From Cellvibrionaceae bacterium (GTDB lineage: Bacteria; Pseudomonadota; Gammaproteobacteria; Pseudomonadales; Cellvibrionaceae): a stretch of 40,000 nucleotides of DNA. The translations under genes were made by a program, and so were the position numbers. The stretch spans positions 21,810-61,809 of the forward strand of contig JBNKFV010000029.1 in NCBI GenBank assembly GCA_050289485.1, in the 5' to 3' direction. A model generated the notes under the pieces. It was given only the letters and a program-made list of their open reading frames with translations, was not told the DNA's origin and did not search any database. Shown in pieces: positions 1,261 through 19,783 of this stretch; the first letter of the stretch is position 1; every line of letters begins with the position of its first letter.

Positions 1261-2769
1261 ATGAATACCGTCGCACATTTTATTAACGGCTCTATTAGCC
1301 TGGGTGAGTCTGCAGAGAGTGCAAGCCCGCGTACGCAAAGCGTGTTTAACCCCGCTACTGGCGAAGTCTCCAAGCAGGTGGCCTTGGCTGGTAAGGCTAC
1401 TGTGGAAGAAGCCATTGCGTCGGCCAATGCGGCTTTTCCGGCTTGGCGAGATACCCCGCCCATTAAACGCGCGCGAATCATGTTCCGTTTTAAAGAATTG
1501 CTGGAAACGCATGCCGACGAAATTGCCGCATTGATCAGCGAAGAGCATGGCAAGATTCATCACGATGCATTGGGTGAGTTCGCCCGTGGTGTTGAAGTGG
1601 TGGAATACGCGTGTGCTGCGCCAGAATTACTCAAAGGTGAGTTCAGTAAAAACGCTGGCCCCGACATTGATTCGTGGAGTGATTTTCAGCCGCTGGGGGT
1701 GGTGGCAGGCATTACACCGTTTAATTTTCCGGCCATGGTGCCCATGTGGATGTTTCCCATGGCATTGGCCTGTGGCAACACGTTTGTATTAAAACCTTCA
1801 GAGCGTGATCCGTCGGCATCGCTGCGCATTGCTGAGCTACTCAAAGAAGCAGGGTTGCCCGATGGGGTATTCAACGTTGTGAATGGCGATAAAGAAGCCG
1901 TTGATACGTTACTGCATGACAAGCGCGTGCAGGCGGTGTCGTTCGTGGGGTCTACCGCGATTGCAAAATATATTTACGCTACTGCTGCTGCCAATGGCAA
2001 GCGCGTACAGGCGCTGGGTGGTGCCAAAAACCACGCGATTGTGATGCCCGATGCCGATATAGACAATGCCGTGAGTGCATTGATGGGTGCGGCGTATGGT
2101 TCTTGTGGCGAACGCTGCATGGCCATCTCGGTCGTGGTTGCTGTGGGTGATGACACCGCCGATGCCTTGGTGGACAAACTGCGCGAGCAATTGGCGACGT
2201 TGAAAGTAGGGCCGGGCACCGACAACAACAACGAAATGGGGCCATTAATTACCCAGCAGCATTTCGACAAGGTAAAAGGTTACATTGCCTCGGGCGTTGA
2301 AGAGGGCGCACAGTTGGTAGTGGATGGCCGCACGCTGAAAGTAGCTGGTTATGAAACCGGTTATTTTCTTGGCGGTACCTTGTTTGATCATGTTTCATCG
2401 GCGATGAAAATTTACCGCGAAGAAATCTTTGGACCGGTGTTGTGCGTTGTGCGTGTAAAAACCATGGAAGAGGCGATGCAACTGATCAACGATCATGAAT
2501 ACGGCAATGGTACGTGCATTTTTACCCGCGATGGTGAAGCCGCACGTTATTTTAGTGATCGCATTCAGGTAGGCATGGTGGGTATTAACGTGCCGCTGCC
2601 AGTACCGGTGGCGTACCACAGTTTTGGTGGCTGGAAAAATTCATTGTTTGGCGATTTACATGCGTACGGCCCCGATGGCGTACGTTTCTATACCCGCCGT
2701 AAAACCGTTACCCAGCGCTGGCCCTCTAGCGGCGTGCGCGAAGGTAAGCACTATTCGTTTCCTAGTTAG
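1261..2769 (+). CDS. mmsA: CoA-acylating methylmalonate/malonate-semialdehyde dehydrogenase
   Basis: 502-aa aldehyde dehydrogenase fold. It has [28 protein letters not shown], the catalytic Cys context GSCGERCMA, and the C-terminal [25 protein letters not shown] typical of MMSDH. It is paired with the transaminase upstream. Confidence 0.9.
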
Positions 2770-3144
2770 TGCCCACGCTCACGAGGTAAGGTTAGTTGTG
2801 GCAAGGCAAGTAAATAGCCACGGTCAATCAGTCGGTAAACTGGTTTGCCGTGCTTCCTTGTTTTAAGCGGTTTAATATGACTGGCTTGCTAAAATAAAAC
2901 CCTTACCCGGTTTCGCAGTGTCATTGTTGGAGAATATTCAGTTGCTCCTGTGTTTCTATACCTTCTGACTATAGGCTATATTTTTAAACTTCATGCAGTC
3001 TTGGCTGGGCTTTCTATCTGTTCAGTGCCTTGAAAAACCAGCAAATGAACAAGACACTGATATTTTGGCTTGGAGAAAATCAGTCTACACTGTAACCAGG
3101 CAGCATTGATGTGTTGGTTTAAGGGGAATTCGCGGGGAGTGTAA

Positions 3145-6100
3145 GTGGCAGCAATCGAAAGGCAGGTGAGCAGATTTGGCGTTGGCCTGATCGTCGCAGT
3201 AATATTTTTTCTCGTGCTGTCGGTGGCACTTTATTCGTTCACTAAGCAGAGTGTCGAGCATGAGGTTCATGCTAATCAACTGGCTGAGCTGGAAGCCAAA
3301 AAACAGTTGATTGTAGCGCGTTTTAACGAGGGCTATAAAGAGGTTGTTTTTCTGTCTAAGGTGCCGCCGGTTGATGGCATTATTCGGGCTACGAAGAACC
3401 AGGGCGTCGACCCTTATGATAAAACCTCTCTCGACGAATGGAAGCGCCGTTTAGAAACCATCTTTCATGCCTACATCCAGTCGCATCCCAGTATTCGCCA
3501 GATTCGCTATATAGGCTATGCCAATGATGGCCTGGAGTTGGTGCGTGTAGAGCGTGAGCAGGGCGCGATTGTTATCGTGCCTGAGCGCAAGCTGCAGGCA
3601 AAAGGAAACCGTAGCTATTTTAAAGAAATAGCAGAACTCGATACTAACAGCCTTTATATTTCTGACTTAGAGCTCAACAAAGAGCACGGCAAGATTCAGT
3701 ATCCGGCATGGCCAACCTACCGTGTTGCCATGAATATTGTTGACGAAAGTTTGCAGCCCTTTGGCTTTGTGATTATTAATTATGATGCGACAGACTTGCT
3801 CGATAGCATCGACGATAGCGAGCAGGGTTACTTCACCTATTTGTTGAATAACAACGAGCAATTTTTACTGCATCACATGCCTGAGTGGGGGTTTGCTTTT
3901 GAAGAGCATGATCGGGCTGGCTGGGGAGATTATTTCTCCAATGCGTTGGTAATGGATTCTACCCAATTCAGTACCACCGTATCTCCAACGGGCGTTGTAA
4001 AACGTTACAGTAGTACCCGTTTAAATGGTCGTTATGCTGGAGGTAAACCGCTCATTCTGGTGGAAAGTATTCCGCAAAATTCGCTGAATAAAATTGTATT
4101 TGATCGCTATATCACTGGGCAAATTGTGTTGCTGGCAGCGTTTTCCATTGCGTTTACTGTTATTTATTTTTACCACCGAGCCTTGATGGAAGGGGTAAAC
4201 CGAAGTCGGCTAACCAAAAAATATCAGGCAATCTTTACCGGTGCACGCGATGCTATTTTAATTTTTGACGGAAAACGGAAGCTGGTTGACGCCAATACGG
4301 CAGCCTTGCAACTTTTTGACCTGTCGCCGACTGCGTTATACGAGGCTAGCTTTAGTCATTTGTTTGGTGATGATGCGTCAACGGTTCGCGATTTACTGGC
4401 AATTTCCCAGGCCGGCGCTTTTACAAGCGAGCAGGAAATGACGATAGGCACAGCAGAGAATGCTCGTATTATTACCATTGCCTTCAGTCAAATTGAGGCA
4501 GATAAAAAAGCAGACTATCACTACGTATGCATTGCTTGTGATGTGACCGACGAACGTGAAGCATCGCAATTAATTGCGAGCACCAATGAGCGTTTGCAGA
4601 TTGAAGTGGAAGCCCGTACCCAAGAGCTTGAAGCCGCCGTAGATCGTGCAGAGCTTGCTACGAAAACCAAAAGTCAATTTCTTGCCAGCATGAGTCACGA
4701 AATTCGAACACCCATGAATGGGGTGTTTGGCATGCTGAATCTGATGCGTCGCGACCCCTTGAGCAAGCGTCAGCTGCGTAATCTGGAGATGGCCGAAGCC
4801 AGCGTGCGTTCGCTAACCGAATTAGTCAACGATATTCTTGATATTTCAAAAATTGAAGCCGGTAAGCTGGATATTGAGACCGCTCAATTTGATTTATGCA
4901 AATTGCTACATTCGTGTGCCACATCGTGCTCGATATTGTTGGCAGATAAACCGGTACTTTTTTTGGTAGATATCAGCGATATCGAGCATGGTTGGGTGCT
5001 GGCTGATTCTAATCGCATTCGCCAGATTATTAACAACCTTTTGGGCAATGCGATTAAATTTACCAGCTTTGGTGAAGTGCGCTTGTACGCCAGTACTCGC
5101 AAAGAAGAGGATGGATCTATCACGCTTTATTGTAGTGTGTCTGATACCGGCGTAGGTATTTCGTCGGAAAAACTGCCCACATTATTTAGCGCGTTTGTAC
5201 AAGAAGATATTGCCACGGCACGTAATTACGGTGGTACAGGCTTAGGCTTGTCTATCTGTAAGCAGTTGTGTGACTTAATGGGGGGGAGTATCGAAGCCAA
5301 GAGCGTGAAAGGTATGGGCAGTATGTTCAGCTTTACACTTCCGCTGCAGTTGCCAAGTAATAGCACGCGTGATGTAAGTTTGCATTCGGCTGAGCCAACC
5401 CGAGTAGCGCTGGCGCTAGATGTAGAGTCATTGCTATCTGTCGTAAACAAAGTATTCAACACATTTGGCCACCAAGTGGAGGAGCTTACCTTTGATCAAC
5501 TGATTCGTGATTTGTCTGGCCACGCCCTCGACGATTTTTATGTGGTGGCAGCTGATTCCCGCATGTATCAGAAGTACGCGGCGCAATTTGAAAAGTACCG
5601 CGCTATGCGCGAAACGCCTTTATTGCTCTTGCTGGTGAATCAAGAATATCAAACGAAAGACAACGATCTTGATGCTAGTAAATTGCCTGCTCATACCCTG
5701 GTACTGGAAACGCCAGTATCGCTGGTGAGTATTGCTGCTGGGTTGAATGCCATGGACTCGGACCGTTTTTGGTTTGAAAGCCAGCGTGTGGGAGCTGATG
5801 CCACTGAAAGGCCTAGTTACGACTTAACAGGCAAAAGCATGCTAGTGGTTGATGATCATCACATTAACCGCGAGGTAATGCGCGGTATTTTGGAAGACTG
5901 CGGCGCGCTAGTGGTTGATGCAAAAGATGGTCAAGAAGCGCTCGATATTTTGTCTTTGCATGAACACAACGATCCGTTTGATCTGGTATTTATGGATTGC
6001 CAAATGCCGGTTATGGATGGGTACCAAGCCACTCGTGCTATTCGCGAAAGTGTTGCGGGCGCGGGCAACAAAGATATACCGATTGTTGCGGTCACGGCGG

Positions 6101-6672
6101 CTGCGATGAGTAACGAGCGTAAGCGCTGTTTCGATGTGGGTATGGACGATTACCTAAGCAAGCCAGTCGACCCGGTTAATCTTTATGCGGTATTAAAAAA
6201 ATGGGTGCCAGACAACGTTTTAGCATCAACAGATGACGCTGTAGATTACGTTGTAAAAGAGGAGAGCGCCACTGAGCCTGTTGCGCCTTTGAAACATGAG
6301 CAGCAGGAGGGTAACGAACTCTTGTGGGATCGAGACGGTGCATTGGCCAGGCTTGGCGGGCGCGAAAATCTGTTTGCCAGGGTGGCGACCATTTATTTGG
6401 AAACTTCACCTCAGGTGGTCAGTGATCTTAATGAAGCTGTGGTTGATGACAATGGTGTTGCCATTAAAAGTGCGGCTCATAGTCTTAAAGGTATTTCTGC
6501 CAGCATTGGGGCAATGCGTGTGGCGGCCTACGCGCGAAAGATGGAAGAGTTATTGGAAAGTGGCACTGTCGCAGAAAGAGCTGCCGTGATGGAAAAGCTG
6601 AATACCCATTATCATGAGGTGATGGCGCTGTTGTCAGCGCAGGGTTTGTCCTCGATGGAGGCACTTGATTAA
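3145..6672 (+). CDS. Hybrid sensor histidine kinase (periplasmic sensor, PAS, HisKA-HATPase, degenerate receiver-like linker, receiver, HPt)
   Basis: GTG start. Domain order: TM helix LIVAVIFFLVLSVALYSF, a roughly 300-aa extracytoplasmic segment, second TM IVLLAAFSIAFTVIYFY, coiled coil, H-box SHEIRTPMNG, N-box NLLGNAIKFT, G-boxes DTGVGI and GGTGLGLSI, receiver (MLVVDDHHINRE..DLVFMDCQMPVMDG..SKP), HPt (AAHSLKGISASIGA). Confidence 0.9.
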   Translation: MAAIERQVSRFGVGLIVAVIFFLVLSVALYSFTKQSVEHEVHANQLAELEAKKQLIVARFNEGYKEVVFLSKVPPVDGIIRATKNQGVDPYDKTSLDEWKRRLETIFHAYIQSHPSIRQIRYIGYANDGLELVRVEREQGAIVIVPERKLQAKGNRSYFKEIAELDTNSLYISDLELNKEHGKIQYPAWPTYRVAMNIVDESLQPFGFVIINYDATDLLDSIDDSEQGYFTYLLNNNEQFLLHHMPEWGFAFEEHDRAGWGDYFSNALVMDSTQFSTTVSPTGVVKRYSSTRLNGRYAGGKPLILVESIPQNSLNKIVFDRYITGQIVLLAAFSIAFTVIYFYHRALMEGVNRSRLTKKYQAIFTGARDAILIFDGKRKLVDANTAALQLFDLSPTALYEASFSHLFGDDASTVRDLLAISQAGAFTSEQEMTIGTAENARIITIAFSQIEADKKADYHYVCIACDVTDEREASQLIASTNERLQIEVEARTQELEAAVDRAELATKTKSQFLASMSHEIRTPMNGVFGMLNLMRRDPLSKRQLRNLEMAEASVRSLTELVNDILDISKIEAGKLDIETAQFDLCKLLHSCATSCSILLADKPVLFLVDISDIEHGWVLADSNRIRQIINNLLGNAIKFTSFGEVRLYASTRKEEDGSITLYCSVSDTGVGISSEKLPTLFSAFVQEDIATARNYGGTGLGLSICKQLCDLMGGSIEAKSVKGMGSMFSFTLPLQLPSNSTRDVSLHSAEPTRVALALDVESLLSVVNKVFNTFGHQVEELTFDQLIRDLSGHALDDFYVVAADSRMYQKYAAQFEKYRAMRETPLLLLLVNQEYQTKDNDLDASKLPAHTLVLETPVSLVSIAAGLNAMDSDRFWFESQRVGADATERPSYDLTGKSMLVVDDHHINREVMRGILEDCGALVVDAKDGQEALDILSLHEHNDPFDLVFMDCQMPVMDGYQATRAIRESVAGAGNKDIPIVAVTAAAMSNERKRCFDVGMDDYLSKPVDPVNLYAVLKKWVPDNVLASTDDAVDYVVKEESATEPVAPLKHEQQEGNELLWDRDGALARLGGRENLFARVATIYLETSPQVVSDLNEAVVDDNGVAIKSAAHSLKGISASIGAMRVAAYARKMEELLESGTVAERAAVMEKLNTHYHEVMALLSAQGLSSMEALD

Positions 6673-6744
6673 TGGCCCCGGATTAGTTGTGCTAGTACAA
6701 CTCTGCCGTTGAATATATGCTCAAGAAGAACGGCACATTCCTCA

Positions 6745-7206
6745 CTAAAATATTTTGAAAATTTCTTTAAAGGTATCTTTGGTAAACACAGATTGCTTTT
6801 TCAGACCAACCACCCGAAAGTAGGTGACCACGTAATCGGCTGGGTCTACGTGGCAGTAGATGTAAGCGTTTTTGTATACCTGCAGGGTGCCTACATGGGC
6901 GAATAGGGTAACCAGGTACTCTTGACGGCGCTCTTCAAACCGTGATGAGTGCCAGTCGGTTTGCGTGCGCACCAGCTCGTTGCCCAAATTGAGTTTGGAT
7001 TTATCTTCACACACATCAATAGCGTCGTTCAGATCAAATGGAATATACGTAAAGTTGCGCCCAGCGAAGCGATCCACAGGCTTTGCCTTAGGCTGATAAT
7101 AGGTGGAAAAATACACCGTTAATGCGCTGGCTGAAATCACCATCGCCGCTGCAAGGCTTACGTATACACCGGTGGGCCAGTGCTGTGGATTCAACCAGCG
7201 AGGCAC
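6745..7206 (-). CDS. Hypothetical membrane-anchored protein, putatively controlled by a c-di-GMP riboswitch
   Basis: This is the only long ORF downstream of riboswitch A on the minus strand. The start is ambiguous: TTG at 7239 (ORF-track start), or GTG at 7206, which lies 4 nt after the stop of an 18-codon uORF. It has one hydrophobic anchor (GVYVSLAAAMVISASALTVYF). I recognise no family. Confidence 0.6.
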   Translation of the reverse strand: MPRWLNPQHWPTGVYVSLAAAMVISASALTVYFSTYYQPKAKPVDRFAGRNFTYIPFDLNDAIDVCEDKSKLNLGNELVRTQTDWHSSRFEERRQEYLVTLFAHVGTLQVYKNAYIYCHVDPADYVVTYFRVVGLKKQSVFTKDTFKEIFKIF

Positions 7207-7350
7207 GGTATTAGCCCTCAGCTGCCAGGCTGACCACAAGAAAAGAAGTGAGTAAACGTGTGTTCATGTTTGCCTACCACCTGTCAAAACAACATTAGCA
7301 TTGTGTTGAACCGGCAGTCGCTGCTCGCGGGCAGGTGTGGCCAGGCACAA

Positions 7351-7433
7351 CTCCATTCGGTAACCGTTCGACCCACCACATAGCGATGGGCACTGGCTTT
7401 GCGTCCCCGCGTTACCACGGGTTTGCCTTTTCG
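7351..7433 (-). promoter_or_regulatory. c-di-GMP-I (GEMM-I) riboswitch aptamer, copy A
   Basis: The minus strand reads CGAAAAGGCAAAC-CCCGUG-GUAA-CGCGGG-GACGCAAAGCC-AGUGCCCAUCGCUAUGUGGUGGGUCGAACGG-UUACCGAAUGGAG. All conserved GEMM-I blocks are present in the correct order: GGCAAAC, a GNRA-capped hairpin, GGGACGCAAAGCC, P2, GGUUACCGAWGG. Confidence 0.85.
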
Positions 7434-7604
7434 AGGAGCAGGCAGAGCCTTCTCATTCGAAAGTATTGCATGTAACTGGTTAAAAAGTGTGAACTAGAGC
7501 ACGCTCTGTGTCAATTGCTATGACAGCATTTTGCGCCAATTTTTGCCGATATTTTAGCCAGTGAGGTGCCTCAGGCTCCTAAACACTAGCTGTGGCTTTG
7601 TAGT

Positions 7605-7637
7605 CTCCGGTGCAGGCTACGCAGCCTGTCACCGGAG
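7605..7637 (-). terminator. GC-rich hairpin downstream of gcvP (terminator-like, no clear U-tract)
   Basis: CTCCGGTG-CAGGCT-acgc-AGCCTG-t-CACCGGAG is a nested perfect 8+6 bp stem about 39 nt after the gcvP stop. Neither strand has a T-run after it, so an intrinsic-terminator function is uncertain. Confidence 0.4.
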
Positions 7638-7675
7638 TAGAGCGACTTGAGTTCACGAAATCTCTGGTACGCCTG

Positions 7676-10564
7676 TTACTGATACGCCAACATCGGTGGG
7701 CATGAGCACACCACGTTGCGGTCGCCAGCAACATTATCAATACGATTTACGCTCGGCCATACTTTGTGCAGTGTTAGCCACGGGGCTGGGGTAACCGCTG
7801 TTTCCCGTGAATAGGGCCGGTTCCACTCACCGAGAATATCAGCCTGCGTATGTGGCGCATTGCGCAACGGGCTGTTTTCCAGTGAGTAGTGGCCGTCTTC
7901 AATATGTTGAATTTCCTGGCGCAGAGTAATCATGGCGGTAATAAAGCGATCGAGCTCGGCTTTAGATTCGCTTTCTGTGGGTTCAATCATCAGCGTACCG
8001 GGCAATGGAAAGCTCATGGTGGGCGCATGAAAACCAAAGTCCATCAACCGTTTGGCAATATCTTCTTCGGTGACGCCGGTGCGTTCTTTAATATCACGTA
8101 AATCCAGCAAACATTCGTGTGCAACAAAACCGTTTTCACCGACGTACAGTACTGGAAAATACGGGCTTAATTGTTTGGCGATGTAATTTGCATTCAAAAT
8201 GGCATATTGAGTAGCCAGTGTTAAACCCTGGCCGCCCATTAAGGTGATGTACATCCAGCTAATCGGCAGAATAGAGGCAGAGCCCCAGGGTGCAGCAGAA
8301 ATTACTTCGCTAAACTCACCCTCAGCCGCCAGCGGATGTGCAGGTAAAAACGGTTTTAAATGTTCGGCCACGCCAATCGGGCCCATGCCAGGGCCGCCAC
8401 CACCGTGGGGAATACAAAAGGTTTTGTGCAAATTTAAATGGGATACATCGCCACCAAATTCACCGGGGGCCGCTACACCCACCATGGCATTCATATTGGC
8501 GCCATCGACATACACCTGCGCGCCCACACTGTGGATTATCTCGCACAGCTCCCGCACACGCGGTTCGTATACGCCATGAGTAGATGGGTAAGTAATCATG
8601 ATGCAGGCAATACGCTCGCCGTGTTCTGCCACCAGCGTTTTTAACTGCTCGATATCTACGTTGCCTTTTTTATCGCAGCCGGTGACCAGAATATCCATAC
8701 CGGCCATTTGCGCTGAAGCGGGGTTGGTGCCGTGCGCTGATGATGGAATAACACAGTAAGTTCGTTGCGTTTCCCCGCGATGTTGAAAATAATTTTTAAT
8801 CGCTAGCAGGCCCGCGTACTCACCCTGCGACCCGGCATTGGGCTGCAAGCTCACGCCAGCATAGCCAGTGCACATTGCCAGCATGTGTTCTAAATCACTG
8901 AACAGTTGCTGGTAGCCTTGCCATTGTTCTGCCGGTGCAAACGGATGCAGTTGGGAAAATTCTGGCCAGGTAACCGGTAGCATTTCTGCGGTGGCGTTAA
9001 GCTTCATGGTGCAAGAGCCCAGTGCAATCATCGATTCATCCAGCGCGATATCTTTGCTGGCCAAACGTTTGATATAGCGCAGCATGTCGGTTTCAGAATG
9101 GTACTGGTGAAACACTGGATGTTGCAGAATATCATCCTGGCGTAGAAGCTCTGGCGCAATGCCGTGTGCGGCCTTGCTGACTGATGCATCAATGGCGGCA
9201 AGATCAATGCTGGTAGTGTTATCGCAGAAAATTGCCAGCAATTGCTGCACATCGTCTACCGTAGTGCGCTCGTGCAGGCTAATACTCAGGTGCTTGTCAT
9301 CACAGCGGCGCAGATTAATTTTTTCTGCCAGTGCTTTATCAAATAAAGCTTGAGTTTTGTCGTTGGTGACCAGCGTTAAGGTATCGAAATAAGTTTGCTC
9401 GGCCAGCGTGTAGCCTGCTGCTTGTAGTGCTTGCGCCAGCATGCCTGTGAGGCGGTGTATGCGGTGGGCAATGCGACGCAGTCCATCTGGCCCGTGATAA
9501 GCCGCATAAAAGCTGCTCATGATGGCCAGCAATGCCTGCGCAGTACAAATATTGGAGTTGGCCTTTTCGCGACGAATATGTTGCTCGCGGGTTTGCATGG
9601 CCATGCGCAGAGCAGGTTTGCCACGGCTGTCTACTGATACGCCAATAATGCGGCCGGGTGCCGCGCGTTTGTATTCATCACGAAAGGCGAAGTAACCCGC
9701 GTGTGGGCCGCCCATACCCATGGGCACGCCAAAGCGCTGGTTGGTACCCACCACGATATCGGCACCCATCGCCCCCGGTGACTTTAACAACACCAGCGCC
9801 ATTAGGTCGGCTGCCACGGTGGTGAGAGCACCCTTGTCTTTAATTATTTCAATAACAGGTGTTAAGTTTTTAATGCTGCCACAGGTGCCGGGATATTGTA
9901 ACAGCGCGCCAAAAATATCGAGATTTTCGAGATCGGTTGCTGGATTTCCCACAATAATGTCGAAGCCAAAGTGCCTGGCGCGGGTTTTTATCACCGCAAT
10001 GGTTTGTGGGTGGGTGTCTTTATCGACGAAATAGGCCTGGCTTTTGTTGCGCTTCTGTACCCGCTTGCTCATGGTCATGGCTTCGGCCGCGGCAGTGCCT
10101 TCATCCAGCATAGACGCGTTAGCCATGCCCATGCCGGTGAGATCCATAATCATTTGTTGAAAGTTCAACAGGCCTTCCAGGCGGCCTTGTGAAATTTCTG
10201 GCTGGTAGGGCGTATAGGCGGTGTACCAGGCTGGGTTTTCCAACACGTTGCGCTGTATCACCGCCGGTACAATGGTGTCGCTGTAGCCCATGCCGATATA
10301 GGTTTTGTAACACTGATTCTGTGCTGCGAGCCCGCGCAGCTTCTCCAAAGCATGTTCTTCTGTCATTGCGCCGGGCAGGTTCATGGCTGTTTTCAGGCGA
10401 ATGTTTTCTGGCACCGCGTTTTCTACTAGTTCGGTTAACGACTTCACGCCCAGTGTGTTGAGCATGGTGGTGGTCTCGGCGGCGTCCGGGCCAATGTGTC
10501 GGCGGAAAAATGCTTCGTTGTTTTCGAGTGCGGTGAGGGAAGCATGAAGAAAGTCGGTTGCCAT
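7676..10564 (-). CDS. gcvP: Glycine dehydrogenase (decarboxylating), glycine cleavage system P protein
   Basis: 962-aa single-chain P protein with the PLP-lysine context SHLNLHKTFCIPHGGGGPGMGPIGV and full-length GcvP architecture. No gcvT or gcvH lies in the window. Confidence 0.95.
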   Translation of the reverse strand: MATDFLHASLTALENNEAFFRRHIGPDAAETTTMLNTLGVKSLTELVENAVPENIRLKTAMNLPGAMTEEHALEKLRGLAAQNQCYKTYIGMGYSDTIVPAVIQRNVLENPAWYTAYTPYQPEISQGRLEGLLNFQQMIMDLTGMGMANASMLDEGTAAAEAMTMSKRVQKRNKSQAYFVDKDTHPQTIAVIKTRARHFGFDIIVGNPATDLENLDIFGALLQYPGTCGSIKNLTPVIEIIKDKGALTTVAADLMALVLLKSPGAMGADIVVGTNQRFGVPMGMGGPHAGYFAFRDEYKRAAPGRIIGVSVDSRGKPALRMAMQTREQHIRREKANSNICTAQALLAIMSSFYAAYHGPDGLRRIAHRIHRLTGMLAQALQAAGYTLAEQTYFDTLTLVTNDKTQALFDKALAEKINLRRCDDKHLSISLHERTTVDDVQQLLAIFCDNTTSIDLAAIDASVSKAAHGIAPELLRQDDILQHPVFHQYHSETDMLRYIKRLASKDIALDESMIALGSCTMKLNATAEMLPVTWPEFSQLHPFAPAEQWQGYQQLFSDLEHMLAMCTGYAGVSLQPNAGSQGEYAGLLAIKNYFQHRGETQRTYCVIPSSAHGTNPASAQMAGMDILVTGCDKKGNVDIEQLKTLVAEHGERIACIMITYPSTHGVYEPRVRELCEIIHSVGAQVYVDGANMNAMVGVAAPGEFGGDVSHLNLHKTFCIPHGGGGPGMGPIGVAEHLKPFLPAHPLAAEGEFSEVISAAPWGSASILPISWMYITLMGGQGLTLATQYAILNANYIAKQLSPYFPVLYVGENGFVAHECLLDLRDIKERTGVTEEDIAKRLMDFGFHAPTMSFPLPGTLMIEPTESESKAELDRFITAMITLRQEIQHIEDGHYSLENSPLRNAPHTQADILGEWNRPYSRETAVTPAPWLTLHKVWPSVNRIDNVAGDRNVVCSCPPMLAYQ

Positions 10565-10815: not shown

Positions 10816-10890
10816 TCACGATTGAGTGATGGCGTTCTGGCAGGTTTGATTCAACGGCCATCTGATACAAACCAGAGGGTATCTGCCCCG

Positions 10891-10967
10891 CGAACAGGCA
10901 AACTTGTGGTAACACAGGGACGCAAAGCCAGTGCCCAGTCTAATGGGTCGAACGGTTACCGAACGGG
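10891..10967 (+). promoter_or_regulatory. c-di-GMP-I (GEMM-I) riboswitch aptamer, copy B
   Basis: Reads CGAACAGGCAAAC-CUUGUG-GUAA-CACAGG-GACGCAAAGCC-AGUGCCCAGUCUAAUGGGUCGAACGG-UUACCGAACGGG. It has the same conserved blocks as copy A. It is followed by a GCGUCU/AGGCGC hairpin plus U-run (10964-10997) that overlaps the 3' side of the aptamer. Confidence 0.85.
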
Positions 10968-11008
10968 CGTCTGCTTCAATAGGCGCTTACACTTTTTAGT
11001 TGCGAGCG

Positions 11009-11494
11009 ATGACGTTGAAGCGAGATAAGTCTAATCCACGGTTAACCGTTGTCCGTGGGCAAGAGGCGAGCCAGACAACGCAGATTGGTGTTGCCGACCG
11101 GCGCAAAGACGTGCGCTATGTTGTGCAGTTGCCTGCGTGGATCCGCCTTGCGTCGGAATATGATCTGCCAGTGTCTGCCAGCAGTATGCCGGTGACTATC
11201 CCACCCCACGGTAGTGTCGTTAACCTATCCAGCTCTGGACTTTGTTGCATCGTGCCCTTTGAGCAGTTGGGCGATTTAATGCGTATTAAAAACAGAGCCG
11301 ACTGGCGCACCCTGTTACCCGTTGTTATTCGCTTTCAATTACCCGCAAAGCAACTGGTGTCTATTGTGTGTGGTGTTGCCTATGTGCGGCGGGCAAAGGT
11401 CGATCATGCCGAGGTGGGGGTATGTTTTCAGCAGTTTATAACGGGTGAGCAGCAGCTGGCTGAGTATATCGAACACCTTAAGCAACGTTTGTAG
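11009..11494 (+). CDS. PilZ-domain protein (c-di-GMP receptor type)
   Basis: Contains both halves of the PilZ binding signature: RRKDVR (RxxxR) and NLSSSG (D/NxSxxG). ATG at 11009 is preferred over the TTG at 11000, but the start is not well supported by an SD. Confidence 0.8.
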   Translation: MTLKRDKSNPRLTVVRGQEASQTTQIGVADRRKDVRYVVQLPAWIRLASEYDLPVSASSMPVTIPPHGSVVNLSSSGLCCIVPFEQLGDLMRIKNRADWRTLLPVVIRFQLPAKQLVSIVCGVAYVRRAKVDHAEVGVCFQQFITGEQQLAEYIEHLKQRL

Positions 11495-13022: not shown

Positions 13023-13709
13023 CTATTCGTCGTCAGAATCATTGAATAAATGAAAAAGCGCATCTTTTTCATTTTGGTTTACGCTGGAGGTATCGTCTTT
13101 GCGGTGGGTTTTGGCATGGCAGACCTGGTTGCGCCCTTTATGTTTTGCTCGGTATAGCTGTTCATCGGCACGCTTGATCAGCGACTGAGCAGTGTCTTGA
13201 AACGGCTGTTGAAACACTGCTACCCCAATACTGGCCGTTACGGTTAAAGTCTTACCACTCTGGGTTATTACTGGTGTTTCCTTCAGCGTTGTGCGAATAC
13301 GCTCGGCAACTGTGAGACTGGTGAGTAAACTGGTGCCCGGCAAAATAATGGCAAACTCTTCACCCCCGTAACGGCAGGCGATATCGAGGCGGCGTATAGA
13401 AGCACGCAAAATATCGGCAGTATGCTGTAATACTTCGTTGCCGATGTCGTGCCCGTAGGTGTCGTTCACCGATTTGAAGTGGTCAAGATCGAGAAGAATA
13501 AGCGCCGTAGACTGGCCAGTACGCTGCGAACGTTCCAGCTCCTGCTCCAGCGCCTCGGTAAAGTAATGGAAGTTATGCAGATTGGTGAGTGCATCTGTAC
13601 CCACTTGCACTTTGAGCGCATCAACCTGGTTACGTAATGCGATTACTTTTGGTGGCCAGGGGCAGCGTTCACCTGCTGGACACTCTGATTCATTGCCGGG
13701 TTGATCCAC
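13023..13709 (-). CDS. GGDEF-domain diguanylate cyclase with intact I-site
   Basis: Active-site RYGGEEF with RRLD (RxxD) exactly 5 residues upstream. GTG start. The short Cys-containing N-terminus (ECPAGERCPWPP) precedes a coiled-coil-like segment. Confidence 0.85.
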   Translation of the reverse strand: MDQPGNESECPAGERCPWPPKVIALRNQVDALKVQVGTDALTNLHNFHYFTEALEQELERSQRTGQSTALILLDLDHFKSVNDTYGHDIGNEVLQHTADILRASIRRLDIACRYGGEEFAIILPGTSLLTSLTVAERIRTTLKETPVITQSGKTLTVTASIGVAVFQQPFQDTAQSLIKRADEQLYRAKHKGRNQVCHAKTHRKDDTSSVNQNEKDALFHLFNDSDDE

Positions 13710-14721: not shown

Positions 14722-15660
14722 TCACTGAGTTCGTTTTGTTTGTTTCTGAATGTCAAGATCACTCATCAAGCGATTGCGGCCGCTCTCTTTGGCCAAATAC
14801 AGAAACCTATCCGCACGCTGAAGGGTTTCTTCTATATTGTTGTCTTCGGGCAGGGCGGCGGTTAGCCCAAGGCTTAGGGTAAGGTGTATGGGTTTGCCAT
14901 CGTGGCCCATAAAGGGGGTGTTGGCCACGGTATGGCGCAATCGTTCGGCGAATACCATGCCGCCTTCTACTGCTGTATCACTGCAGCACAACACAAACTC
15001 TTCGCCGCCAAAACGCGCAAAAATATCAGATTCACGTTTGTATTCCTGGCAGAGGTTACTGATTTCAGTCAGCACTTTGTCGCCAGACGCATGGCCATAT
15101 TGGTCATTAATACGTTTAAAGTGGTCAATATCAATCATCAGCAGGCACATTGGCCTGTCGTAGCGTTTGCTGCGCGCAAATTCGGCGTTGGCCAACTCAA
15201 AAAAATGCCTTCGGTTAAAGGCACCGGTAAGAGGGTCCTGTGCGGCCAGTGTTTTGAGCTGCTGATTAGTATCTTCCAGTTTTAGCTGCGATTCACGTAG
15301 CCGCAGGGCAGAGCGCACACGGGCTGCCAATATGGGATAAACAAAGGGTTTGGATACGTAGTCGTGTGCACCAAGATCCAGCGCCTCAACAATATCTTTC
15401 GTATCCTCGTTGGCAGAAACCATGATCACGGGAATGTCAGTATAAGCGGGGTTAGCGCGAATTTGCTTGAGGGTTTGTATGCCGTTCATTATCGGCATAA
15501 ACAGGTCTAACAGCACCAGGTCGGGTTGATGCTGCTCAATGGCCTTAAGGCATTGCTCACCGTTTTGTGCTGTATATACTTCGTAGCCTTCATCTTCCAG
15601 CTCAAAACTCAGTAGCTGCAGGTTATCTGCGATGTCGTCGACAATGAGTATTTTGGCCAT
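14722..15660 (-). CDS. Response regulator with GGDEF output (PleD/WspR-like diguanylate cyclase)
   Basis: N-terminal receiver (KILIVDD..DLVLLDLFMPIMNG..DYVSKP). C-terminal RFGGEEF with RESD (RxxD I-site) 5 residues upstream. Confidence 0.9.
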   Translation of the reverse strand: MAKILIVDDIADNLQLLSFELEDEGYEVYTAQNGEQCLKAIEQHQPDLVLLDLFMPIMNGIQTLKQIRANPAYTDIPVIMVSANEDTKDIVEALDLGAHDYVSKPFVYPILAARVRSALRLRESQLKLEDTNQQLKTLAAQDPLTGAFNRRHFFELANAEFARSKRYDRPMCLLMIDIDHFKRINDQYGHASGDKVLTEISNLCQEYKRESDIFARFGGEEFVLCCSDTAVEGGMVFAERLRHTVANTPFMGHDGKPIHLTLSLGLTAALPEDNNIEETLQRADRFLYLAKESGRNRLMSDLDIQKQTKRTQ

Positions 15661-18346: not shown

Positions 18347-19783
18347 GTGTGCCAGACATGGCATTTAACTAGAGAGGTGCAAGTCCTCTTACCAGGTATT
18401 CGCAGAGCCGAAGGTTAGCCAAAGGGCAAGGTTATTGCCGCGAGGTAATGGCTGAACCGAATCAAACCTCCTTGTTAATGCAACGTATCGTAGAAAGGAC
18501 AAACCTACAACGAGCATTAAAACAAGTTCAACGCAATAAAGGCGCCCCCGGTGTTGACGGTATGACGGTAAGCCAATTACCGAACTACCTAAAACAACAC
18601 TGGCCGCAACTGCGCGAGCAACTGGTTACGGGACGATACAAACCGCAACCGGTGAAACGCGTAGAAATTCCTAAAGCCAACGGCAAAATGCGTAAACTCG
18701 GGATACCTGCTGTGGTAGATCGATTTATACAGCAAGCCATCGCACAAGTACTCAGCGGGCACTGGGAAACCGTATTCCACCCGAACAGCTTTGGGTTTCA
18801 TCCCAACAAATCAGCACACCAAGCGATTCGAAGCGTGCAGCACTTTGCACGAGACGGGTATCGCATCGTGGTTGATCTGGATCTGGCGAGCTTCTTTGAC
18901 GAAGTGAACCACGATCGTTTAATGGCGACGCTCAAACGCACACACCCGGAAAACGATGTTCTACGGTTAATCAACCGTTACCTGAAAGCGCCAGTGCAAA
19001 TGCGCGATCAGAACGTAGCATCAACAAAAGGTGTCCCACAAGGTGGACCGCTATCCCCGTTGCTTGCCAATATTGTGCTTAACGAACTGGACTGGGAATT
19101 AGAGCAGCGACAGCTACGATTCGCACGCTACGCCGATGACTGCCAAATACTGGTGGGTAGTTATCGCGCTGGCGAACGTATCATGGCAAGCCTGACGCGC
19201 TTTATCGAGAAAACACTGAAGCTCAAAGTGAACGACGAGAAAAGCGCGGTGGCGGCGGTACATAAGCGAAACTTTCTGGGTTTTACGCTGGCCCGCAAGG
19301 ATAAGCGGATAAAAGTCAGCAAACAATCCCTCGCGAAATTGAAGGCAACGGTGCGTACTGTCACCCGCCGAACACGAGGCCATTCGTTTCAACACATCCT
19401 TGACGAGTTAAAGAAAAGCCTGCTTGGTTGGAAAGCGTACTTTGACATCAGCGAAGTACTGAGCCCTCTGAAAGATATGGACAAATGGATTCGGCGTAAA
19501 TTGCGGTGCTATCTATGGAAGCAGTGGGGAAGATCGGGCTATCGACGTTTAAGACGGTTAGGTGTTGATAGGCTGCTGGCCTGGAACACGGCTAAATCGG
19601 CCCACGGTCCTTGGCGTCTGAGCAAAAGCCCCGCGCTTTACTACGCGCTACCAAACAGATACTTTAGGAACTTGGGGCTGCCTGAATTGGCGACAAGGAC
19701 AAATTGATGATTTGAACCGCCGTGGTACGTGACCCGTATGCCCGGTGATGTGGGAGGAGAGGTGTCGTGAGGTGCCTCCCTAT
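18347..19783 (+). mobile_element. Group IIC intron (apparently with a truncated 5' ribozyme portion)
   Basis: The 5' end GUGUGCCAGACAUGG...GGUGCAAGUCC resembles the Oceanobacillus iheyensis IIC intron 5' end (GUGUGCCCGGCAUGG...GGUGAGAGUCC, recalled from memory). The 3' end GAACCGCCGUGGUACGUGACCCGUAUGCCCGGUGAUGUG is domain V-like with a CGC triad. It is followed by the domain VI hairpin GGGAGG..CCUCCCUAU. The element encloses an RT/maturase ORF. Confidence 0.75.
18448..19707 (+). CDS. Group II intron reverse transcriptase/maturase (no endonuclease domain)
   Basis: RT blocks: RNKGAPGVDGMT, RKLGIPAVVDRFIQQA, SFGFHPNKSAHQA, DLDLASFFDEVNHD, GVPQGGPLSPLLANIVLNELD, RYADDCQILV. The maturase X region is LLGWKAYFDIS..WIRRKLRCYLWKQW. 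The 419-aa size fits class C. Confidence 0.92.
   Translation: MAEPNQTSLLMQRIVERTNLQRALKQVQRNKGAPGVDGMTVSQLPNYLKQHWPQLREQLVTGRYKPQPVKRVEIPKANGKMRKLGIPAVVDRFIQQAIAQVLSGHWETVFHPNSFGFHPNKSAHQAIRSVQHFARDGYRIVVDLDLASFFDEVNHDRLMATLKRTHPENDVLRLINRYLKAPVQMRDQNVASTKGVPQGGPLSPLLANIVLNELDWELEQRQLRFARYADDCQILVGSYRAGERIMASLTRFIEKTLKLKVNDEKSAVAAVHKRNFLGFTLARKDKRIKVSKQSLAKLKATVRTVTRRTRGHSFQHILDELKKSLLGWKAYFDISEVLSPLKDMDKWIRRKLRCYLWKQWGRSGYRRLRRLGVDRLLAWNTAKSAHGPWRLSKSPALYYALPNRYFRNLGLPELATRTN

Follow-up and report, generated by a model that had tools for sequence, protein, structure and literature searches.

Does a c-di-GMP riboswitch on the minus strand of a Cellvibrionaceae genome control the short gene that follows it, and, if so, what kind of protein is put under the control of cyclic di-GMP (c-di-GMP) and by which mechanism? 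This question is raised by a 40,000-nucleotide stretch of DNA (assembly GCA_050289485.1, contig JBNKFV010000029.1, positions 21,810 to 61,809; hereafter the window), in which an aptamer of the GEMM-I type (c-di-GMP-I, Rfam RF01051) lies upstream of an open reading frame (ORF) at 6745-7206 encoding the protein P0001. Few approaches can link an uncharacterised protein to a physiological signal, and riboswitch regulons are among them. Taken as a whole, the data presented here favour, with a probability of roughly 85%, a c-di-GMP-I riboswitch unit controlling a new family of membrane-anchored periplasmic proteins. Positions are given in window numbering with the strand in brackets, the features of the unit are collected in Table 1, and related loci are cited by their handles (L007, L009 and so on) where they have to be told apart.

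The aptamer and its pairing with the downstream gene

A scan of the whole window with Rfam 15 at gathering thresholds returned two matches, both to RF01051. The one upstream of the P0001 gene, at 7356-7437 (-), reaches 60.8 bits, 26 bits above the gathering score of 35 (E 1.2e-9), and covers the full model (1-87 of 87). A first-pass annotation, made from the sequence alone, had placed a complete GEMM-I aptamer at 7433-7351 (-), and the bounds of the covariance-model match agree with it within a few bases; the motifs that it had quoted (GGCAAAC, CCCGUG-GUAA-CGCGGG, GGGACGCAAAGCC and GGUUACCGAAUGG) can all be read in the window, and the aptamer is, as it had stated, the second GEMM-I of this DNA, the other match being found at 10887-10963 (+) with 53.4 bits. 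When the isolated minus-strand aptamer is folded, the minimum free energy (MFE) structure is a three-way junction made of an 8-bp closing P1 helix, the P1a/b hairpin CCCGUG-GUAA-CGCGGG, whose GUAA tetraloop is of the GNRA type, and the P2 hairpin. The ligand core reads ACGCAAAGCC at 7395-7404 and the 3' core reads ACCGAA. Thus, at the level of the sequence, the score, the three-helix junction and the ligand-contacting nucleotides all conform to RF01051.

The association between the aptamer and the gene was assayed starting from either partner. Starting from the protein, DNA was analysed from 14 independent lineages, with protein identities down to about 30%. Directly upstream of the gene and on the same strand, a GEMM-I aptamer at or above the gathering score was found in 10 of the 14 lineages (about 70%), with 59.4 bits in L007, 61.6 in L009, 57.1 in L010, 49.2 in L011, 53.1 in L014, 49.4 in L015/L016, 54.4 in L018, 61.9 in L020 and 51.3 in L021, in addition to the 60.8 bits of the window. 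The gene has different neighbours in almost all of the lineages, and nothing but the riboswitch is conserved beside it; for the same reason, an attempt to derive the function of the protein from its gene neighbourhood failed, no neighbour being conserved. Chance co-occurrence is negligible, because the only other GEMM-I in about 106 kb of fetched flanking DNA is the PilZ-linked one that is also present in the window.

Starting from the RNA, metagenomes were scanned for the 16-mer TCGAACGGTTACCGAA, and of the 120 loci stored, 22 also had the remainder of the GEMM-I core, with downstream sequence available for 21 of them. The first downstream ORF encodes a member of the P0001 family in 7 of these 21 metagenomic aptamers (hmmsearch E 1e-46 to 1e-51). 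The same aptamer subtype precedes reprolysin-like metalloproteases with PKD, Ig and cadherin domains at three loci, as well as one large secreted protein, one lipoprotein-like protein and one protein of 114 amino acids. A second recurrent cargo was observed at six loci (L024, L028, L034, L039, L072 and L115), where it is a secreted protein of about 450-500 amino acids, with the motifs LVYELLGGGV and NDVFGFFLDG and thrombospondin-like DxDxDG repeats, for which no Pfam match was found at E<=0.001. The non-family cargoes of this subtype are typical of c-di-GMP riboswitches.

In conclusion, since the pairing is kept across lineages of about 30% identity amid unrelated neighbouring genes, it appears to be functional rather than accidental, and the cellular level of c-di-GMP would set the expression of the protein; this conserved pairing supports the proposal of the first-pass annotation that the product of the ORF is c-di-GMP-regulated, whereas the possible tie to adhesion or to polysaccharide particles, also suggested there, is a guess. 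Across the marine Cellvibrionales, most family members carry the riboswitch, which would mark the family as a dedicated c-di-GMP output.

Two genomic arrangements of the family gene deserve to be recorded in their own right. In L023, two divergently transcribed family paralogs at 2106-2651 (-) and 3001-3489 (+; E 1.7e-18) share a 390-nt intergenic region in which no riboswitch was found, and some other form of control seems to have taken the place of the riboswitch in this lineage. In the related genomes L011 (1-5474) and L014 (1-5462), the family gene and its riboswitch come directly after a motA-motB-parA-like-cheW-cheW-DUF2802-rhodanese cluster and before MoxR-type AAA and VWA genes, while flgE is found 3.4 kb away from the gene in L012. 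These adjacencies hint at a link with motility, yet they represent one or two evolutionary events only.

A family of membrane-anchored proteins with a two-cysteine domain

The database proteins begin at the GTG at 7206, which gives P0001 a length of 153 amino acids, while the ORF would span 6745-7239 if counted from a TTG; judging from the sequence, the GTG is the start codon, and the longer TTG frame is without support. The product corresponds to what had been anticipated, namely a protein of about 150 amino acids with a single N-terminal hydrophobic anchor and no motif that could be placed, as it contains one transmembrane (TM) helix and matches no curated family. The ORF is conserved as a coding sequence. 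Specifically, a word-indexed search of 5.8 billion proteins recovered two relatives only, and an alignment-based search for related loci yielded two genomic loci and none in the JGI metagenomes, while an exhaustive HMMER search of 1.84 billion representatives identified 104 clusters at E<=1e-3, of which 60 at E<=1e-10, the clusters being represented at 50% identity. Named carriers are Cellvibrionaceae metagenome-assembled genomes (MAGs), Teredinibacter franksiae, Aestuariicella sp. G3-2, Exilibacterium sp. and one Alteromonadaceae MAG.

Nearly all family members are 145-190 amino acids long. An alignment of 74 sequences shows a variable N-terminus with one hydrophobic segment, followed by a domain of about 100 residues with the signature (R/K)(D/N)(F/Y)xxxPFDxxDAxxxC ... 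DxHS(T/S)R(F/Y)(D/E) ... VG ... IYCxVDP ... YY, in which positions A62, C66, S87 and C118 are invariant. AlphaFold2, when seeded with this alignment, returned a confident model (pLDDT 88.4, pTM 0.71) with one TM helix at residues 12-36, a second helix at 59-77, five antiparallel strands and a short C-terminal helix; the single-sequence model, with a pLDDT of 34, was discarded. In the model, the predicted fold shows a helix packed on a five-stranded sheet, which may be of the cystatin/NTF2-like type. According to the positive-inside rule, the N-terminus would be cytoplasmic (N-in/C-out) in 45 of 61 full-length members and, in addition, exactly two cysteines are present in each of the 67 family domains considered. 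On the basis of this topology and of the two cysteines, the domain is probably periplasmic and disulfide-bonded.

The window protein had no match to any Pfam family at E<=1 and none in NCBIfam, and when 74 members were compared with Pfam at E<=0.01, the sole match was one weak LapA_dom on the TM region. The family profile did not match PDB sequences significantly (best E 0.82), and literature searches returned nothing on this protein family. Therefore, whereas the riboswitch class is already known, the protein belongs to no described or curated family. A mobile-element or defence origin was also considered and rejected, as no family copies were found in the plasmids and phages searched, and no PADLOC or PHROGs model matches the protein or its relatives. 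As for its role, the protein most plausibly acts in the envelope, as an effector or an adaptor of the motile-sessile switch.

Proposed refolding, readout and ligand of the leader RNA

In the absence of ligand, the leader would favour a fold that competes with the aptamer, in which a 5' hairpin takes up the 5' strand of P1 and the tail GGAGUUGYG, located just past P1, pairs with the invariant core CGCAAAGCC. The 5' hairpin has a folding energy of -13.2 kcal/mol (z -3.6), and none of 200 shuffled sequences was as stable; its 5' arm (UCGAAUGAG...) resembles the P1 3' strand (CCGAAUGGAG...), and equivalent hairpins were recognised by eye in L033, L041, L045 and L047. The GUUG(Y)G portion of the tail is kept in seven lineages. 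Across eight leaders, 86% of the cells of the core-tail helix are paired, its Y position being U or C opposite an invariant G, the apo fold is 70% paired and P1 77% paired, versus 24-48% for P1 when the partner strand is slid and at most 48% in all the slid controls. A RNAalifold consensus of four leaders contains both the 5' hairpin and the core-tail helix, that is, the apo structure. Moreover, the unliganded MFE structure of region 7335-7468, which includes the 5' hairpin, has an energy of -48.9 kcal/mol (z -2.1) versus -36.4 kcal/mol for the canonical aptamer fold. This gap of about 12 kcal/mol is comparable to the energy with which a picomolar-to-nanomolar ligand binds, and the binding of c-di-GMP would pay for the closure of P1 and the formation of the three-way junction. 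We infer from these models that a two-state refolding, starting from a 'double lock' apo fold, is plausible.

With regard to the output of such refolding, a standard terminator scan of region 6400-7800 detected no intrinsic terminator, hence none between the aptamer and the ORF, and thus gave no sign of the constitutive termination before 7267 that the first-pass annotation had considered. The 149-nt spacer between the aptamer and the start codon is without significant structure (z +0.64) and has no C-over-G bias resembling a Rho-utilisation (rut) site (C/G 1.00). Long leaders of 73-167 nt are usual in the family, although six lineages have no more than 14-24 nt between the end of the aptamer and the start codon. 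As neither the window nor 16 of 17 family leaders have an intrinsic terminator (the strict criteria are passed by L010), a readout acting on translation initiation or on mRNA fate, rather than on intrinsic termination, is favoured and seems reasonably probable.

The best surviving alternative is transcription attenuation, according to which the ligand-bound P1 would hold GGAGUUG and the CAACA...UGUUG-UUUU hairpin would form at 7286-7308, or Rho would stop transcription in the long spacer. A terminator-like hairpin followed by four U residues is indeed present in the window under relaxed criteria, but it consists of 5 bp with 2 G-C pairs, is absent from the MFE fold and lies in a segment no stabler than its shuffles (z +0.63). 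Among the relatives, L010 carries a strict terminator-like site and the P1 3' strand of L041 forms an 8-bp terminator-like hairpin followed by CUUUUCUC, while the spacers of L007, L009, L010 and L018 share a motif, CAAC(U)GAACA, with complementarity to AGUUG; against this, the standard scan of the window region is empty and a single leader out of 17 passes the strict criteria. Leaders of 73-167 nt, which are the rule in the family, would leave room for Rho, whereas the base composition offers no support in the window and a mild bias in the relatives (C/G 1.05-1.37). Both the intrinsic-terminator and the Rho/rut models were therefore set aside, and we regard attenuation as unlikely.

Returning to a readout on translation or mRNA fate, two specific models were rejected. 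An anti-Shine-Dalgarno mechanism, in which the 5' arm, the P1 5' strand or the tail would pair with the ribosome-binding site, gave z values of -0.5 to +1 in most leaders, with the exceptions of L010 (-2.8) and L020 (-3.3). A leader peptide or translational coupling through the upstream ORF (uORF) at 7211-7267 is not general, comparable uORFs being found in two (L009 and L021) of the 15 leaders scanned; the uORF of L009 has 16 codons and overlaps the ATG of its gene as AUGA. As to the sign of the regulation, we lean slightly towards repression at high c-di-GMP, because the only relatives of textbook design (L011 and L014) place the Shine-Dalgarno sequence inside the extended P1 3' strand. Specifically, in both of them 14 nt separate the end of the aptamer from the ATG, and the AAGG of the Shine-Dalgarno sequence is base-paired as part of this strand, an arrangement corresponding to a textbook OFF switch.

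Upstream of the aptamer, the first-pass annotation had noted a TTGACA at 7514-7509 (-) and a poor -10 element, and both are as described; the -10 element was not called by a consensus promoter scan. Nevertheless, the same arrangement recurs in two diverged relatives, as TTGACA-N17-AAAACT in L007 (protein 55% identical) and as TTGACT-N17-CACACT in L009 (48%), with differing sequences between the elements. For this reason, TTGACA-N17-CACACT is accepted, despite its weak -10, as the likely promoter, which would place the transcription start site near 7479 and result in a 5' untranslated region (UTR) of about 270 nt. The upstream gene on the same strand, gcvP (7676-10564, -), terminates 240 nt before the aptamer and is followed by a strong hairpin which has no U tract, hence was not called by the terminator scan, and which is probably the end of the upstream transcription unit, either as gcvP terminator or as a repetitive extragenic palindromic (REP)-like element; on account of this hairpin, the riboswitch gene would have its own promoter. 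At its other end, the gene is convergent with the hybrid histidine kinase gene at 3145-6672, and the transcription unit therefore consists of one gene. The region 7514-6745 (-) would thus represent a single-gene unit, in which a promoter is followed by a 5' UTR containing a class-I c-di-GMP riboswitch and by the gene for a bitopic inner-membrane protein.

This position downstream of gcvP, the weak -10 and the long, unstructured spacer to the ORF could also be compatible with an aptamer that does not control the ORF, and that marks the 3' region of the gcvP transcript or yields a stable riboswitch-containing small RNA, such as the one reportedly formed by Vc2 of Vibrio cholerae. However, the aptamer goes with the ORF and not with gcvP, being kept in L009, L010, L011, L014, L015, L018, L020 and L021 behind unrelated upstream genes (a chemotaxis cluster, a major facilitator superfamily (MFS) transporter, a nitroreductase and others) and, in six lineages, at just 14-24 nt from the start codon. 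Considering also the strong hairpin after the gcvP stop and the conserved -35/-10 pair before the aptamer, an aptamer serving gcvP or a small RNA is highly improbable.

The aptamer as the sensor of the P0001 gene can finally be inspected for its ligand. The ligand contacts considered were, in Vc2 numbering, G20, which is A in variants recognising cyclic GMP-AMP (cGAMP), the ACGCAAAG core with its intercalating A, and C92 in the ACCGA 3' core. The equivalent of G20 is G7427, at the 11th unpaired position of the RF01051 model; in the RF01051 alignment, both GACGCAAAGCC and GGUUACCGAA are found in the aptamer, and the ACCGA 3' core holding C92 is intact. Position G20 has been described as separating c-di-GMP sensors from cGAMP sensors, which carry A (PMC6140456). 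By its G20 and C92-region determinants, the window RNA reads as a regular member of RF01051, of the c-di-GMP rather than the cGAMP type. Recognition of 3',3'-cGAMP or of another cyclic dinucleotide has the slimmest chance of the alternatives, for although RF01051 takes in GEMM-Ib variants without splitting the two specificities and the core varies in two relatives, the G20 position is occupied by G in the window and in 14 of 15 family aptamers inspected, where cGAMP variants have A (PMC6140456), and the two GGDEF proteins and the PilZ protein encoded in the window point to canonical c-di-GMP signalling. As for the two variants themselves, in L018 (2809-2900, +), whose protein cluster is shared with Teredinibacter franksiae, GGCGCAAAG and GCUGAG replace GACGCAAAG and ACCGAA, and in L021 (2787-2889, +) a C is found at the G20 position (AAUCGCAAAC). 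Both variants still exceed the gathering threshold, and they may differ in ligand specificity or affinity.

Several observations weigh against the overall picture of a c-di-GMP-controlled, periplasmic protein with a refolding leader. Four of the 14 lineages (L012/L013, L017, L022 and L023) are without any riboswitch, even at E<=1, and permissive Rfam searches for a degenerate or alternative riboswitch in these four found none. The charges of the window protein itself do not follow the positive-inside rule, with two K/R residues before the TM helix versus three after it, so that its own topology is ambiguous. Covariation was not significant for P1, for the 5' hairpin or for the core-tail helix, the observed values being equalled by shuffles in 123-407 of 500 trials; it does not separate P1 or the apo fold from chance, because eight leaders are few and nearly invariant in the columns concerned. 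The strands released in either state are not consistently complementary to the ribosome-binding region, so that in the window nothing yet connects the aptamer with the output of the gene. Lastly, the hints about the sign conflict, since the OFF design of L011 and L014 is opposed by L041, whose P1-derived hairpin would give an ON switch, and by L010, where the P1 5' strand matches the Shine-Dalgarno region over 8 bp (z -2.8) and would likewise give ON.

Table 1. Features of the riboswitch unit in the window, in the order of transcription
Feature	Position	Strand	Remarks
Strong hairpin, 8 + 6 bp (14 bp), GCGU loop	7605..7637	-	39 nt past gcvP stop; read from sequence
-35 hexamer TTGACA	7509..7514	-	read from sequence; invariant vs L007; TTGACT at equal spacing in L009
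-10 hexamer CACACT	7486..7491	-	17 nt after -35; weak vs TATAAT
5' hairpin UUUCGAAUGAGAAGGC-ucu-GCCUGCUCCUCGAAA	7429..7462	-	3' arm contains P1 5' strand; candidate P1 competitor
c-di-GMP-I (GEMM-I) aptamer	7356..7437	-	RF01051, 60.8 bits; canonical three-way junction when folded alone
P1 3' strand CGA-au-GGAGU	7350..7359	-	partner GCUCCUCG at 7432-7439; MFE of isolated aptamer and RNAduplex
Conserved tail GGAGUUGUG	7346..7354	-	complementary to core CGCAAAGCC (7395-7403); candidate anti-aptamer helix
Spacer from aptamer to start codon	7207..7355	-	149 nt; terminator scan empty
Weak terminator-like CAACA-caaugcuaa-UGUUG + UUUU	7286..7308	-	5 bp, 2 G-C; relaxed criteria only
uORF MNTRLLTSFLVVSLAAEG*, 18 codons	7211..7267	-	own AGG Shine-Dalgarno; stops 5 nt before GTG start
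Shine-Dalgarno GAGGG	7215..7219	-	8 nt 5' of GTG at 7206
Gene for P0001, 153 amino acids	6745..7206	-	TM 12-36 (nt 7099-7173); alpha+beta domain ~50-153; invariant C66 and C118

Genomic surroundings, meaning and comparison with known systems

The other GEMM-I of the window precedes a gene for a PilZ-domain protein at 11000-11494 (+; Pfam PilZ 25.2 bits), which would place a PilZ c-di-GMP receptor itself under the control of a c-di-GMP riboswitch. gcvP lies between the two riboswitch units, which are oriented outwards. Within 9 kb of both riboswitches, genes for c-di-GMP signalling are located at 3145-6672 (+, the kinase), 13023-13709 (-) and 14722-15660 (-), and their types are a hybrid sensor kinase (HisKA-HATPase-REC-Hpt), a stand-alone GGDEF protein and a REC-GGDEF response regulator. 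The product of an ORF at 18448-19707 (+) has domains of a reverse transcriptase and of a group II intron maturase; the Rfam scan of the window at gathering thresholds listed no RNA of a group II intron. The window also encodes a glycoside hydrolase of family 1 (GH1), a sugar MFS transporter, a TonB-dependent receptor and tryptophan-halogenase-like genes, and from this gene content the window looks like DNA of a marine polysaccharide degrader.

What is new in this locus is an unclassified periplasmic family defined genomically by its riboswitch, together with an unproven 'double-lock' apo fold; for RNA biology, the gain is incremental. The protein is a candidate envelope effector of the motile-sessile switch in marine polysaccharide degraders and shipworm symbionts (Teredinibacter, Aestuariicella and Exilibacterium), in which the outputs of c-di-GMP are poorly mapped. 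A more far-reaching combination of these elements, in which a new periplasmic, disulfide-bonded and anchored family is the dedicated output of the riboswitch and one of the two commonest cargoes of its subtype, acts on the envelope (e.g. on the flagellar motor or stator, an adhesin or polysaccharide export) and is set by a threshold-tuning 'double lock', is put forward tentatively and must be considered doubtful as a whole. The weight of the finding would grow if the protein were truly a new c-di-GMP effector of the envelope, or if the upstream competitor hairpin were a general threshold-tuning device of GEMM-I riboswitches. In addition, the natural variants of one aptamer with expression platforms from 14 nt to 167 nt could reveal how terminator-free gammaproteobacterial GEMM-I riboswitches work.

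With regard to the protein, its architecture can be compared with TraM of pIP501 (VirB8-like, PDB 4ec6) and with the colicin M immunity protein (PDB 2xgl), both of which have a short N-terminal tail, one TM segment and a small extracytoplasmic alpha+beta domain; 2xgl also has a disulfide. Both structures are among the Foldseek matches, with E 0.14 and 1.1 and a TM-score of at most 0.45, values which are not significant. There is no sequence similarity to the window protein, and the likeness is one of fold class only, not of homology or shared function.

With regard to the RNA, Bc1/Bc2 of Bacillus and Cd1/Cdi2 of Clostridioides difficile are described as exerting cis-acting c-di-GMP control of collagen adhesin, pili and flagella, and to this extent they are similar to the window switch, all being cis-acting c-di-GMP elements for envelope or surface proteins. 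The Bacillus and Clostridioides switches use clear rho-independent terminators, whereas the window has none and the relatives one in 17 leaders; for Bc1, two rho-independent terminators are described (PMC11218506).

The closest parallel is provided by Vc1 (gbpA) and Vc2 (tfoY) of Vibrio cholerae, which have the same RF01051 three-way junction, the GNRA tetraloop, the ACGCAAAG core and recognition of the G20/C92 type. Both are gammaproteobacterial, possess long leaders with no obvious intrinsic terminator and each serve a single gene of surface or motility lifestyle. The window switch differs from them in its cargo, which belongs to a different, unclassified protein family, and its clade differs in the conserved hairpin 5' of the aptamer, which holds the P1 5' strand, and in the tail complementary to the core, neither of which, to our knowledge, has been described for Vc1 or Vc2. 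Orthologues of Vc1/gbpA and Vc2/tfoX are listed in a review (PMC6366702). Of the systems compared here, the Vibrio switches Vc1 and Vc2 are thus the ones that the window switch resembles most.

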